IMG/VR virus record: IMGVR_UViG_3300014866_000001
Span: 4,377 to 68,376 of that record
From: a virus
Lineage: Duplodnaviria > Caudoviricetes
DNA: 64,000 nt
Direction: 5' to 3' (one strand)
Part shown: piece after piece, positions 1,644-10,044 of the stretch
How the letters are laid out: every line of letters starts with the position of its first letter
Position numbering within the stretch: position 1 is the first letter of the stretch
Made by a program: the position numbers and the translations under genes
The notes under the pieces: model-generated
What the model saw: only the letters and a program-made list of their open reading frames with translations
What the model was told of the DNA's origin: nothing
Databases searched by the model: none

Positions 1644-2588
1644 CTATTTTGCTGATTGCAACAATTCCTTGATCGACCAGACGTGTTCTGTCAATCCGCT
1701 GGCCATCGCTGGCGTCTGGTTGCGAACAGCTTCGTTGCGTCGGCAGAAGTTGTACCACGCGACAAACAGTGCCGTCATCGCTGCGTGGTGACGGCTCGAC
1801 TTGCTGTGTGCATTCGTCAACCGAGTGTATCGGCGAATGTGCATCCGAACGGACAGGTTGAGCCGTTCCGAATAGCTCGTCGAAACTTCGTCCATGTTCG
1901 GGCTACCGAAGCGCGTCACGATCTCGATGCCGGTTATCGTCGCTGGGCTGTACCGCGTTTCCTCTTGGCTGCTTTTGTACGACTTGATTAGCTGAGCGTA
2001 ATCGCAACGCGAGCCGAGCGCGAACGGGACACCGTTTGTGTAGATTCCAAGCCCGTCCGTCGTCACTTGAATGCGACCACTGGTTGCGTTGTTCAATCGG
2101 TTCAGAAAACGTTCGCCAGTGTACTCATCACGTTGGCCAACGGCATGGGAAAGGATTAGCTTGGTGTCTGCGTCGATTCCCAACCACGTCCAGATATCTC
2201 CGCAGTCATCGTCGCGGCCAAGTCGTTCTTTGGTCTTTTGCTTGCATCCCGAAAAATCCCAGATTTCATCAAGCTGCGCGGCGCGAGTCTTCACGTTAAC
2301 GATTGCCGATTCCAGGAACTTATCGCAGTTCTCGCCAACGTGAACAATCAAATCGCAGATCGTTCCTGCCTTCATGCCGGTGATCCGCGAACAAGCGCGG
2401 ATGCTCATTCCCTCCAGCAGCATGTTGAGAACAACGCAAGCCTTATCCATGTCGACCCGCATTGCACCCAAGGGGCGCTCTTCGTTGCAGGTGAACATTG
2501 CGCCACAATCGCGACACTTCCAACGTTGCTGGCCGTTACGGATTCCACGCTTTGCTCGGTTCGTGTGTTGACATGCGATAGCGATCAT
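1644..2588 (-). mobile_element. IS1-family DDE transposase
   Basis: N-terminal Zn ribbon (C..H...CRDC), HTH, then QLDEIW / TTDG / ERLNLSVR catalytic motifs; terminal inverted repeats not found. Confidence 0.88.
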
Positions 2589-3348: not shown

Positions 3349-4018
3349 GACCGATCCTGATGAACCAAAGTACTCCGCTCTGGACCTGTGGCATTTCGGG
3401 CATGAACTGCTGCTGCTGGTAAACGAGATTTCCAGCGCACTGGCTCAATCGCAAGTTGAAGAAGAGAAACGCAAAGCCCGCGAAGGAATGCTTCGATTAG
3501 AACTGAAGCTGTCTCGCGAGTTTGATAACGACGCAGTTAGCCACCTCATGGCCGAAAAATTCGTCGCTGAAGTAATTAACGCAATTGAAAGCATTCGAAC
3601 GACATTGCATCGAACCGTCATCGCTTGGGATGCTCAATCCAAAGTCAAGATAGCGCCATACTTCTTGGAGTCGTGGCCATACTTAACGAGAACTCTACAG
3701 AGCAACTTGGATACGCTCGCAATGCTCCAACCGGACGTTCATCGCACTGTTTACCGCAAGAGTTTGGCGAGACTCCGCGCAGAGCACCGTCTTGCGGACA
3801 ATGCGCAGGAGCCAACAATTAAAAAGACTCCAACCGCACGACAAAAAAAGGCTCTGGACTTCGTCAGGGAAAAAGGGCGGGTGAAGGGATACTTCCTCGC
3901 AAAACATTTAGGAGTCAAAGAATCGACGTTTCGGAAGCATTGGGAACCTGGACTGCGACCATTCGGGTTACGAAACGACAGAACTGGTGATGGATACTAC
4001 ATTGGCGATGAGTCCTAA
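3347..4018 (+). CDS. Hypothetical protein with C-terminal winged HTH
   Basis: TARQKKALDFVREKGRVKGYFLAKHLGVKESTFRKH. Confidence 0.65.
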   Translation: MTDPDEPKYSALDLWHFGHELLLLVNEISSALAQSQVEEEKRKAREGMLRLELKLSREFDNDAVSHLMAEKFVAEVINAIESIRTTLHRTVIAWDAQSKVKIAPYFLESWPYLTRTLQSNLDTLAMLQPDVHRTVYRKSLARLRAEHRLADNAQEPTIKKTPTARQKKALDFVREKGRVKGYFLAKHLGVKESTFRKHWEPGLRPFGLRNDRTGDGYYIGDES

Positions 4019-4575
4019 TAATCATCCCAAGTAGAGCGACCTAGGCGCACCAAACGCGCGATACGTCGATAGCAGGATAGGCAATAGCCACGAACTCTTG
4101 CTGGCTTGTTGCAGCCGCGAGTTTTGCAGCAAGCGTAGTTTTGCGGCGGGCTGGTAACCTCGCTCGGATATTTCTGTTTTGTCGAACTAGAAACCGGCTG
4201 TGACTTGGTGTGTTTGCCGGTGGCCAGTGCGCATAAACCAGCGCTGTCCACCAGAAATCGCGGACCCACGAAAATGCGGCGAATTGGTGCATGGTGCGCC
4301 TGACGGAACAGTGCCAGCACCCGGAACAAGTATGCCACACCGCCGTCATTGACTCGCACACACATATGCCGACCACGAGTCTTCACCAACCTACCCGACA
4401 GAGCCACATCCAATACTCGTTGCCCCGTGGTACAGGACTTCCTGTTTCCAGGCTGGCCGTTTCTGGCTGGCAGATTTGACAACCCTATTTTCATGCAGTG
4501 CGTACCCACTGAGTGGTACGACGGCACCGAAACCGAGTATCTGACGACGTGACAATACGGATTTTTGGTCTTCAC
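4015..4575 (-). CDS. Possible small Zn-finger protein; only the C-terminal part is convincing and the start is uncertain
   Basis: C-terminal CKTRGCNKPARVRGYCLSCYRR. Confidence 0.35.
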   Translation of the reverse strand: MKTKNPYCHVVRYSVSVPSYHSVGTHCMKIGLSNLPARNGQPGNRKSCTTGQRVLDVALSGRLVKTRGRHMCVRVNDGGVAYLFRVLALFRQAHHAPIRRIFVGPRFLVDSAGLCALATGKHTKSQPVSSSTKQKYPSEVTSPPQNYACCKTRGCNKPARVRGYCLSCYRRIARLVRLGRSTWDDY

Positions 4576-7268: not shown

Positions 7269-7328
7269 GTCACCTATATATACCCACGATTTGGAATAGG
7301 CAAGGCCAGCCGGAGAAAAAGTTGCACC
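7269..7328. repeat. 60-bp direct repeat, copy A
   Basis: 55/60 identical to 9943-10002. Confidence 0.9.
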
Positions 7329-7480
7329 GCGACACGACACTGTCTGCTCCAATCATCATTACCGGATCGAGAACGTACAACACCTCTGGTGGCAGCACAA
7401 ACACTCTTGCTTCTCAGTTGTGACTGTTTCGGTCCTACTCCTACTCAATGTCTCGCGCCGTGGACCGTTACCGACAGATC

Positions 7481-7588
7481 GTCGCAGCGTTCAAAGCCCT
7501 GCGCGGCTTGTGTTTCTCTTCACCCGGAAGCAATGGAGCACATCCTGGCAATGTCGCAGCGTTCAAAGCCCTGCGCGGCTTGTGTTTC
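7481..7588 (-). CRISPR. Mini CRISPR array: two identical 36-nt repeats and one 36-nt spacer; possible degenerate third repeat at 7389-7430
   Basis: GTCGCAGCGTTCAAAGCCCTGCGCGGCTTGTGTTTC at 7481-7516 and 7553-7588; internal CGCAG/CTGCG stem; 17 nt from the stop of a Cas12-like gene. Confidence 0.8.
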
Positions 7589-7605
7589 ACAGTCATTGTA
7601 ACTCA

Positions 7606-9438
7606 TTACACCGTAGCCATTGCGGGAGCATGTTGCGAGCGGCCAGTTTTTTGGTTCTCTTTGCGACCGCTCTTCTTGGCCAGCGACAACACCCAACTCG
7701 TGAATATATCAGAGCCGCGAGCTGGTCCCACAGTTTCCGGAAGCACGTCGGCTCTCGCAAGGCCGTAGCCAGTCAAGAGGGCCGATAGTTTGCCGGGCGA
7801 CACGGCTGCTAAATACTCCCTCGACCGCGATGGAAGTGGGTCAAACCGAAGTAGGTCCCGTGTGTCGTATCGCCTAATACTCGCTAAGTCGATCGGATCA
7901 ACCATAATCTCGCTGTGCAACGAGCACACTCGCCTTGCCACCGTTTCGTAAATCTTCTCAATACATCTCACCGCCCGACGCATGACCTTTGTCGCGCGGG
8001 AGATTGTCCGATTAAATTGCTCCAGTTTGTTGAACGCGCCGTTGTCCAGCGGATTCGCGCCGCAGTAATCCTCGAGCGCCGCGACACCCTGACGCTTGCC
8101 TGCTTCGGGATCGCTGCCAGTCCGCTCGATAATCTCCTCGTTGGCCAAATGGTCACATTCCTGCCGAGCAGCCGAGACAGCGAGCCGGGCATTGATCAGC
8201 CATCGCGGCAGGATCAGTCGCTCGTTAACGTGCGTGCCGAGAAAGTGACAGACCTGGATCCCGTCTGGAGTCGACCGCCACGTCAAATCGAACCCGACCA
8301 CGCCATCGCCTGTCGGCTTCACGAGTCCGTGATTCTTGACGATCGGAATAACTTCCCGCTTTCCAGATTCGCGAACAACGAGGCTCCACCTCCGAATAGT
8401 TCCATCAGTCGGTAGTGGTCGATGGAATTTTGCGCGGTAGGTAATCTGTCGGGGGTGATCCGCCGTCCCGATCTGATGGCGGACCTCGTACACCGTATGC
8501 TCGCGATTGGCCTTGTGCTGGGTGTAGATCGGCGTCAAGCACAAACATGTGTTGTCGCCGTCGATCGATTCGGATACCGGAAGGCCGCTGGCGAAGTGAA
8601 TGGAAATTTTCTCCCACGGCTTCGGCTCTGGGGCGCGATGATATTCGTACCGCATTCCCGGACCTGTCTTAGTGAGTTTCGGTTTGCTGGATTCGACAAT
8701 CTCGGCCCGAATGGCTGAATGCAATCCGCGCCCCTGGAATTCGACGGACAGTTTTCGTTGCTCAAGGTCGCACTCCATTTCCAGGCGTCCGATTGCCGCA
8801 ATGACGGCGGGATCAATCGTACCGAGTGGCTTGCGAGTGCATTCCTTGCCTTCCGCCCGGGCCTCTGATTCCGCAGCGGCTTGTTGAGCGACGTCGAGTA
8901 TCCGATACGGTTCGCCAGTCTCCGGCCACTCGATCGCGTCATACAACTTCTCACGCTTTTCCAGCGACTTGACATTTTTCCAGTCCGCCAGACTCGACCA
9001 ATACATCGCTCGGGCGCGGAGCGAATCCAGCCACGGACGCCGCAACTCTGAAATTGTCCGTTGCCAGTGGCCGCGACGTTCTCGGAGTTGCTCCAATCTG
9101 GCTCGTTGCTCGGCCAGCATGGCATTTTTGTCGCGGGTGTCGCTGTGATGTTTCTTGATTTCTTTTTCAAGCCACCAGATGGCGGCCTTCGACGATTCGA
9201 ACTCGATCATCGCCGCGAATAGCTCGGGGCACGAGTTGTTCCGCAGGTCAATGAGTCGACGGTGCCGCGAGTGAAGCGTGGTACATAGTCGCTCGCGATA
9301 TTCGTCAGCCAGTGCGAGTACGGCGATTTCGTCATCGCTGGCTTGACCGTAGACGCCGAATGTGCCGAGTGCTTGGGGAGCAGACATGAACGATGGCAGG
9401 TTCAAGAGAGAGGGGGAGCGGTGGTCGGTTATTTCCAA
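7606..9438 (-). CDS. Type V-U1/Cas12m-like (TnpB-derived) RNA-guided effector, probably nuclease-deficient
   Basis: LALADEYRERL N-terminal motif, FHRPLP, RuvC-I VVGFDLTWR, RuvC-II-like IMVDPIDL, no Zn ribbon; likely start ATG 9387 (593 aa). Confidence 0.75.
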   Translation of the reverse strand: MEITDHRSPSLLNLPSFMSAPQALGTFGVYGQASDDEIAVLALADEYRERLCTTLHSRHRRLIDLRNNSCPELFAAMIEFESSKAAIWWLEKEIKKHHSDTRDKNAMLAEQRARLEQLRERRGHWQRTISELRRPWLDSLRARAMYWSSLADWKNVKSLEKREKLYDAIEWPETGEPYRILDVAQQAAAESEARAEGKECTRKPLGTIDPAVIAAIGRLEMECDLEQRKLSVEFQGRGLHSAIRAEIVESSKPKLTKTGPGMRYEYHRAPEPKPWEKISIHFASGLPVSESIDGDNTCLCLTPIYTQHKANREHTVYEVRHQIGTADHPRQITYRAKFHRPLPTDGTIRRWSLVVRESGKREVIPIVKNHGLVKPTGDGVVGFDLTWRSTPDGIQVCHFLGTHVNERLILPRWLINARLAVSAARQECDHLANEEIIERTGSDPEAGKRQGVAALEDYCGANPLDNGAFNKLEQFNRTISRATKVMRRAVRCIEKIYETVARRVCSLHSEIMVDPIDLASIRRYDTRDLLRFDPLPSRSREYLAAVSPGKLSALLTGYGLARADVLPETVGPARGSDIFTSWVLSLAKKSGRKENQKTGRSQHAPAMATV

Positions 9439-9450
9439 GTAGCGCGCATG

Positions 9451-9473
9451 AAAAAGCCGCCCGAAGGCGGCTT
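9451..9473 (-). terminator. Rho-independent terminator
   Basis: AAGCCGCC-TTCG-GGCGGC-TTTTT on the minus strand. Confidence 0.75.
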
Positions 9474-9487
9474 GCTACGATTCGTGG

Positions 9488-9936
9488 CTATCGTGGCTTC
9501 TGTGGTATCCGCTCCGCGTCCTGGCTCGGTTCGGATTGGTCTTCGTGTTGAACTTGGGCGGGCGGCAACCCTGCCTTCCGGCGAGCGCGACGAAGACAAC
9601 CCAAGAGCCAGTATTCAAATTCGTGGAAACTGTCCTTGCTAAGGTTGTCCGGCCAAATGATTTCAGCCGCTCCCTCATCCAATTGCTTGCGTTCCTTCGC
9701 AAACCCATCCTTTGGCAGTTCCGATTTCGTTGCTGCCAAAGCTATTGGGGGGGCTTTTTTTGTTGTTGGTTCTGCGATTGCTACTTCGGACATTGGTACG
9801 TGTCCTTTCCCCTCGAAAAAGACGAACCGTTGACCTTCATGCTCGTCAATTCGTGAAATTTGAAGGGGTTGATCAAATTGGTCCACGCCGTTCGAGGTCC
9901 ACTGCACGTAGTCGCCAACCTTGACGTACCTCAGTA
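9488..9936 (-). pseudogene. Probable 5'-truncated gene fragment
   Basis: Frame runs ...YVKVGDYVQWTSNG... back to a TGA inside direct-repeat copy B; no SD or ATG; track ORF uses GTG 9907. Confidence 0.45.
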
Positions 9937-9942
9937 GAGTAT

Positions 9943-10002
9943 GTCACCTATATATACCCATGATTTGGAACAAGCAAGCCCAACCGGAGAAAAAGTTGCA
10001 CC
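9943..10002. repeat. 60-bp direct repeat, copy B
   Basis: 55/60 identical to 7269-7328. Confidence 0.9.
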
Positions 10003-10044
10003 ACGCCCCGGAAACCACTAGAGTGATTCGTTCTTGGTCAGAAA

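Follow-up and report, generated by a model that had tools for sequence, protein, structure and literature searches.

Cas12m, the effector of type V-M CRISPR systems, silences without cutting (PMC11013384, PMC10442227). V-M systems are especially frequent on plasmids and also occur in some prophages (PMC11656645), and the catalytic triads vary among Cas12m clades (PMC10442227), with either D or K at the RuvC-III position of the published clades. Here we analyse an effector gene with a Cas12m-like product and a two-repeat CRISPR array in a tailed phage, IMG/VR record IMGVR_UViG_3300014866_000001. The window, meaning the whole stretch of DNA analysed (64,000 nucleotides), is G000:C1:4377-68376 of that record, where G000:C1 denotes record coordinates; positions given without a prefix are those of the window.

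The effector resembles the described V-M proteins (MmCas12m2, 8hhl and 8hio; GoCas12m, 8pm4; PmCas12m; 23vw) in its WED domain, REC1/REC2 sickle and RuvC core, in its length of ~590 amino acids (aa) and in its non-canonical RuvC residues. Its 36-nt repeats have a stem and pseudoknot scaffold at matching positions, there is no anti-repeat of the kind found in trans-activating CRISPR RNAs, and the locus is borne by a mobile genetic element (MGE) without an adaptation module. Unlike all published Cas12m, which keep both, the effector has neither the TNB zinc finger nor the RuvC-III helix. It also has an added, conserved C-terminal tail of ~50 aa, its identity to Cas12m is only ~15%, and its clade was not found in 50,697 GenBank phages or 72,556 PLSDB plasmids.

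A phage-encoded Cas12m, MvCas12m, is also known from a myxophage (bioRxiv 10.64898/2026.09.14.751636). As here, an array lies next to the gene, cas1/2/4 are missing and no protospacers were identified. MvCas12m is, however, a canonical V-M protein with a D-E-D triad, a presumed nuclease, and is accompanied by 8 spacers, whereas the effector described here is devoid of RuvC-III and TNB and has a two-repeat array. The nuclease-dead TldR proteins (PMC10705468), which are found in prophages, and the dCas12f/sigma-E systems (PMC13472631) are similar in their C-terminal RuvC loss, in having one or a few fixed guides, and in the control of transcription that we propose below. They use omega-RNA or single-guide scaffolds without CRISPR arrays, are of TnpB or Cas12f origin, and have fliC, oppF or rpoE as partners; the module studied here has a true repeat-spacer array, the spacers of its clade are diverse, and no partner gene accompanies it. 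Membership of the TldR family was ruled out by the true array, by Z scores of 9–10 to TnpB structures and by the lack of a conserved neighbour, and membership of the dCas12f/sigma-E group by the absence of Sigma70_r2 from the complete phage genome and by Cas12f structures scoring far below Cas12m. Viral mini-arrays and solitary repeat units, for which a role in inter-virus competition has been proposed, also place one or two spacers or a lone repeat in a virus (PMC11656645). Classical mini-arrays copy the repeats of the host and rely on its effector, whereas this phage brings its own.

A literature search found no published Cas12m lineage without TNB and RuvC-III, or with this tail. A preliminary description, made from the sequence alone, had suggested that the effector might be undescribed. 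This holds for the TNB-less architecture with its C-terminal tail, which is new, but not for V-M systems on plasmids and prophages, for non-cutting silencing or for a phage Cas12m (the myxophage DED protein), all of which are published; an MGE-borne, adaptation-less, non-cutting Cas12m is known.

Identity and phylogeny of the effector

The preliminary description gave the product as 593–610 aa. The open reading frame (ORF) as listed begins at a TTG codon, and alignment with 35 relatives and with the database copy P0002 places the real start at ATG 9387, the shorter of the two forms (Table 1).

The effector is unrecognised by Pfam, NCBIfam and PHROGs. In a phmmer search of the PDB with the single sequence, the only real match was Cas12m 23vw_A (E 5.9e-7), with the WED and RuvC-I block aligned; a profile of the clade returned nothing at E <= 1, although the single sequence had matched. 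An AlphaFold2 model constructed from a 35-sequence alignment had a mean predicted local distance difference test score (pLDDT) of 91.2 and a predicted template modelling score of 0.79. Foldseek ranked Cas12m2 (8hhl) first for this model (E 7e-19), followed by Cas12m 8pm4. VIA-align gave Z scores of 17.8 (8hhl), 17.4 (8hio) and 17.3 (8pm4) with 438–465 residues aligned (465 to Cas12m2), compared to at most 10.5 for Cas12f, TnpB and other Cas12 types. The structural alignment with Cas12m2 spans model residues 1–555, and the last ~40 residues are without a Cas12m2 counterpart. Sequence and predicted fold both rank Cas12m first, the fold far above Cas12f and TnpB, in agreement with the Cas12m-like assignment of the preliminary description. 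We conclude with high confidence that the effector is Cas12m-derived, array-associated and phage-borne.

An exhaustive HMMER search of 1.84 billion representatives yielded 82 proteins, which form three groups. Canonical Cas12m proteins are distant matches with two CxxC pairs and a RuvC-III of the WDQDxNAA type; in a small group of intermediates, a conserved C-terminal tail is present alongside a retained zinc ribbon; and the members of the third group have the tail and no zinc ribbon. The RuvC triad is DED in 15 members of the canonical group (n = 22) and DDD or SDD in the group with both zinc ribbon and tail (n = 8). P0052 and P0062-P0073 (L014, L015) combine zinc ribbon and tail with a degenerate RuvC-III of the WDRDxGAC type. 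In a midpoint-rooted FastTree phylogeny of 86 full-length sequences, canonical Cas12m lies on one side of the root; on the other, the zinc-ribbon-and-tail proteins branch outside a group consisting of P0052, itself of that form, and all zinc-less proteins. The zinc-less clade (56 representatives, metagenome-only), to which the effector belongs, is monophyletic and nested among the forms with zinc ribbon and tail. Since the intermediates have both the zinc ribbon and the tail, the simplest history suggested by these sequences is that the tail was gained first and that TNB and RuvC-III were then lost once.

No other relative was found in IMG/VR. The GTDB genomes contain one, on a phage-like contig of an Aquaspirillum metagenome-assembled genome (MAG), which is unreliable as a host call. 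Most of the nearest ESM Atlas clusters are viral, but this is no more than a lead.

Losses at the nuclease site

The preliminary description read Asp at the RuvC-II Glu position, found the zinc ribbon missing and could not recognise RuvC-III. An ungapped alignment with canonical Cas12m assigns the first of these to D497. As for the other two, the alignment of the relatives indicates that both elements are in fact deleted: the effector has no CxxC pair, and L543 and A544 are adjacent where the canonical and intermediate relatives carry CxxC..CxxC..WDxD, a clean deletion. The RuvC-III column is a gap in all 56 members of the zinc-less clade, as against D in 21 of 22 canonical representatives. 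The RuvC-I position is D in 23 of the 56 and Arg or Lys in as many (R 16, K 7), and RuvC-II is likewise decayed (Table 1). Because RuvC-III and TNB are deleted and the other two RuvC positions have decayed clade-wide, the effector very likely does not cleave its target, and the nuclease-dead assignment made earlier is thus strongly favoured by sequence. The tail is absent from canonical Cas12m and is present in the intermediates that keep the zinc ribbon.

Table 1. Features of the effector locus, in window positions.
Feature	Position	Strand	Remarks
Effector ORF as listed	7606..9438	(-)	TTG start, 610 aa
Cas12m-derived effector gene	7606..9387	(-)	593 aa + stop; WED, REC coiled-coil 'sickle', RuvC core; no TNB zinc ribbon, no RuvC-III
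Effector stop codon	7606..7608	(-)
D367 codon, RuvC-I position	8287..8289	(-)	Asp kept here; R, K, S, E, T, N or W in 33/56 clade members
D497 codon, RuvC-II Glu position of canonical Cas12m	7897..7899	(-)	D in 35/56 clade members, else variable
Deletion junction L543/A544	7756..7761	(-)	Site of TNB zinc ribbon and RuvC-III helix in canonical and intermediate relatives
C-terminal tail, residues 544–593	7609..7758	(-)	Clade-specific, conserved; predicted helix 563–568, strand 582–585
CRISPR repeat 1	7553..7588	(-)	36 nt; begins 17 nt past stop codon
Spacer 1	7517..7552	(-)	36 nt
CRISPR repeat 2	7481..7516	(-)	Identical to repeat 1
Post-last-repeat sequence	7431..7480	(-)	Usable as second guide
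68-nt direct repeat, upstream copy	9943..10010	(-)	Weak hairpin + T-run, then promoter-like TTGCTT, 17 nt, TATATA
139-aa ORF in cassette	9488..9907	(-)	No family match; no homolog beside other clade members
GC-rich hairpin + T5, terminator-like	about 9450–9475	(-)	Between 139-aa ORFan and effector start
68-nt direct repeat, downstream copy	7269..7336	(-)	88% identical; terminator-like hairpin 7340–7324, then promoter-like element for next gene

CRISPR repeats and scaffold

The effector gene is followed by its own mini CRISPR, as the preliminary description had it, with two identical direct repeats where chance would be expected to give none. The CRISPR RNAs (crRNAs) of type V systems carry the repeat on the 5' side of the guide, and the sequence past the last repeat is therefore usable as a guide in addition to spacer 1. 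A covariance model of the clade repeats detected exactly three copies in the phage DNA searched, with other matches at chance level: the two array repeats (46.7 bits each) and a solitary full-length repeat (49 bits) outside the window at G000:C1:2014-2049 (+), equivalent to L007:1489-1524. A degenerate third repeat suggested at 7389–7430 was undetected by this model and was rejected.

The solitary repeat differs from the array repeats by four substitutions, one of which retains the stem as a G-U pair. It is followed by a spacer-like stretch and then, ~75 nt downstream, by a palindromic hairpin with a T-run. The integrase match (G000 3719-4042) is on the same strand, ~1.7 kb downstream of this repeat, which probably serves as a third guide gene standing alone. 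Three copies of a ~67-nt element, spaced ~135 nt apart, are located between the solitary repeat and the integrase region (L007:1600-1933); they may represent small RNAs, promoters or arm sites of the integrase.

Downstream DNA was readable for nine relatives, and in each an array of 1–18 repeats of 36 nt, with spacers of ~36 nt, follows just past the gene. The repeats number 14 in L004 (whose protein is 66% identical), 7 in L008 and L009 (one array on two contigs), 10 in L010, 6 in L011, 18 in L013 and at least 3 in L014, while L015 has a single repeat. L016 has 2 repeats in the same layout as the phage studied here, in a phage context with RecT and YqaJ. The contigs of L001, L002 and L003 stop ~45–53 nt past the stop codon; the ends of L001 and L003, when read, lie inside a first repeat, as usually happens when an assembly breaks at a repeat. 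One repeat-spacer unit is exactly duplicated in the L011 array (L011:1429-1572), and the L013 array (L013:11676-12990) combines at least three variants of the repeat as a mosaic. There are hints here that the arrays of the relatives grow by duplication or recombination and not by Cas1-Cas2 acquisition.

A stem is common to the repeats, and its loop forms a pseudoknot with the 3' end of the repeat. Across 17 distinct repeats, 98.7% of the cells are paired, with compensatory double changes in 4 of 9 pairs, and this pairing score was approached by none of 500 shuffles and by no slid register. The pseudoknot has a second compensatory change in three further repeats, those of L010, L014 and L015, as judged by eye. 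Pairing joins about -28..-25 to -18..-15 and -23..-19 to -7..-3, in agreement with what has been reported for the crRNAs of Cas12m2 and PmCas12m (PMC10442227; bioRxiv 10.64898/2026.03.26.714355). No anti-repeat was found within ~0.6 kb downstream or 2.5 kb upstream of the array, and Rfam has no family for the repeat.

Proposed function

We consider it reasonably probable that the locus as a whole is a phage-borne, adaptation-less, V-M-derived module for RNA-guided DNA binding and silencing without cutting. The effector gene and the two-repeat array are probably co-transcribed, since they lie on the same strand and 17 nt apart. Each repeat would fold as a Cas12m-type scaffold, with a short stem and a pseudoknot between loop and 3' end, and the effector would bind this scaffold and carry the adjacent 36–50-nt guide; a third guide would probably come from the solitary repeat near the integrase gene. 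The resulting ribonucleoprotein (RNP) would recognise double-stranded DNA flanked by a protospacer-adjacent motif (PAM) and form an R-loop, which it most likely could not cut, the third RuvC carboxylate and the entire TNB zinc-finger domain being deleted. The bound RNP would then block transcription or replication, as do MmCas12m2, GoCas12m and PmCas12m. From the prophage, the module would silence specific genes of competing phages or plasmids, or a host gene; silencing from the prophage is the most likely role because the phage is temperate and the cassette has its own promoter-like and terminator-like boundaries. Silencing by DNA binding is the best-supported function and, on present analysis, a moderately probable one. 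The analysis directly supports the homology and fold, the array and its RNA scaffold, the deletion, the phage context and the lack of partner and adaptation genes; expression, DNA binding, lack of cleavage, target and biological role are all inferred here. The preliminary description proposed a repressor for superinfection exclusion or host gene control, a role that we too infer, from the published behaviour of the family and the temperate-phage context, and that we hold no more firmly because no protospacer was found for any spacer.

Four points weigh against silencing by DNA binding. The first is the search for targets, which returned no protospacer, and hence neither target nor PAM, for any spacer of the phage or of four relatives' arrays. 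The three candidate guides gave only chance matches of 8–14 nt in the phage's own genome, no match to IMG/VR with exact 20-nt seeds, a best E value of 4 against GenBank phages and, in 301 genomes from the class of the relative-carrying MAG, chance matches or that MAG's own repeats. The 35 spacers from the four relatives' arrays match neither the phage studied here nor one another's loci; the L004 array had no significant match to GenBank phages, the L013 spacers had none in their own MAG, and the guides of the L016 and L015 mini-arrays have no self-targets. Second, deletion of TNB from engineered PmCas12m abolished or strongly reduced its activity (bioRxiv 10.64898/2026.03.26.714355), so DNA binding by a TNB-less protein is not to be taken for granted; for the same reason the tail probably compensates for the lost TNB. 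Third, the effector itself retains the acidic residues D367, D497, D500 and D560, which may provide a residual metal site. Fourth, expression of the effector may be low or dependent on read-through, as judged from the terminator-like hairpin that precedes the gene and from the lack of a visible Shine-Dalgarno sequence ahead of ATG 9387.

Cas12m is under development for base and epigenome editing, as a compact DNA binder that by nature does not cut. A natural, conserved clade without TNB and RuvC-III, with arrays and scaffold, offers an evolution-tested template for a smaller binder, and it suggests that the C-terminal tail is what compensates. It would also extend the known series of RuvC decay in type V effectors by one stage, in which a tail is gained and TNB is then lost. 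Temperate phages with their own effector and one to three guides would occupy a position intermediate between CRISPR immunity and regulation by fixed guides, as in TldR. More speculatively, and in our estimation rather unlikely, a TNB-less Cas12m would work by means of the earlier-gained tail, which replaces TNB or recruits a partner, and in the temperate phages with 1–3 fixed guides (the phage studied here, L016 and L015) the module would have exchanged immunity for dedicated RNA-guided regulation of host or rival genes, as an array-based counterpart of TldR.

It is improbable, though it merits consideration, that the tail docks a host or phage factor (RNA polymerase, a sigma factor, a helicase or a trans-acting nuclease) and makes the effector a recruiter or activator, much as Cas12k recruits a transposase. 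The tail is the only feature that the clade has gained, and its Asp residue D560 is conserved in 50 of the 56 members; because this holds whatever the state of the RuvC residues, the pattern argues for a structural or interaction role and against a rebuilt catalytic triad. A precedent exists in an exapted dead Cas12f that drives transcription, dCas12f recruiting sigma-E (PMC13472631). A partner is nevertheless not apparent in the neighbourhood: tblastn of the neighbours in the window found no conserved neighbour gene, and an all-vs-all comparison of ORFs from -5 to +6 kb of the effector at nine loci returned only array-translation artefacts. In six-frame profile searches in which the controls were positive, the complete phage genome had neither Sigma70_r2 nor the ResIII helicase, the sole helicase family searched. 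No longer, fused forms of the effector were found, which is weak evidence, and the predicted tail helix has a pLDDT near 89 in the monomer model, which is compatible with an intramolecular role in which the tail replaces TNB.

The retained acidic residues raise the less likely case of a residual nuclease or RNase, in which the subclade that keeps D367 and D497 binds metal and processes pre-crRNA or nicks DNA. The two Asp residues co-occur, RuvC-II being D in 21 of the 23 members with RuvC-I D but in 14 of the other 33, and the close relatives P0002-P0009 all keep both; moreover, the partial HDD site of Cas12m2 binds one magnesium ion and the non-target strand (PMC10442227). The co-occurrence may, however, reflect shared ancestry alone. 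The RuvC-III helix is physically gone together with its Asp, the third carboxylate required for two-metal catalysis, and Cas12m2, with its fuller site, is already unable to cut DNA and processes its crRNA independently of the RuvC Asp residues (PMC10442227).

It is very unlikely that the array and solitary repeat RNAs act with a crippled effector as a decoy or anti-CRISPR that poisons a host V-M system, or that the locus is a decaying relic, since, even though solitary repeat units in phages can serve as RNA anti-CRISPRs (PMC11656645) and this array is minimal (two repeats and one solitary), the clade is conserved along its whole length, 41 columns being invariant and the frames intact across 56 representatives, its relatives maintain long arrays with diverse spacers that neither a decoy nor a relic would need, and the repeats match the phage's own effector clade with no host V-M system known.

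Cassette boundaries

In the window, the 68-nt direct repeat occurs in two copies only, which bracket the 139-aa ORFan, the effector gene and the array. On the minus strand, both copies read as a weak hairpin with a T-run and then a promoter-like -35 element, 17 nt and TATATA. The cassette looks like one of moron type bounded by duplicated regulatory sequence, and the hairpin at 9450–9475 could attenuate expression of the effector. The best partial self-matches of the spacer of the solitary repeat (positions 20–30) are at 9983–9993 and 7310–7319 (11 and 10 nt), in both copies of the 68-nt repeat and by the promoter-like elements of the cassette. Being PAM-distal and no better than chance (E 0.4), they are probably meaningless, although their position is curious.

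Phage genome

The phage record is 68,376 bp long, has direct terminal repeats and is rated 100% complete. It encodes the large terminase, portal, major head and tape-measure proteins and, just left of the window, a tyrosine integrase (G000:C1:3719-4042 (+); Pfam Phage_integrase, E 5e-11; 335-aa open frame). The effector is thus phage-encoded, as previously described, and the tyrosine integrase marks the phage that carries the module, a complete tailed phage, as temperate. No terminase of a GenBank phage exceeds 46% identity to that of this phage, which has no tRNA genes. Among the public runs, the only holder of its full DNA is a freshwater sediment metagenome, which may be the source sample, and no RNA holder is listed.

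Six-frame profile searches with positive control genomes found Cas1, Cas2, Cas4 and Y1 TnpA absent from the complete phage genome. The preliminary description had reported this absence for the window, and it extends to the whole phage with one correction: a 314-aa ORF at 1644–2588 (-), ~5 kb from the effector locus, matches an IS1-type DDE transposase (28 bits, cut-off 24.1). It may represent an insertion sequence inside the phage, and nothing was found linking it to the effector locus.

The genes flanking the effectors of the relatives are mostly small ORFans, with RecT, YqaJ, a P22-type small protein, NAD ligase, HNH and T5orf172 as phage or MGE markers. At both ends of the phage genome (63741–63992 and G000:C1:29-145), short matches recur every 27 nt, which suggest 27-nt tandem repeats inside the terminal repeats.

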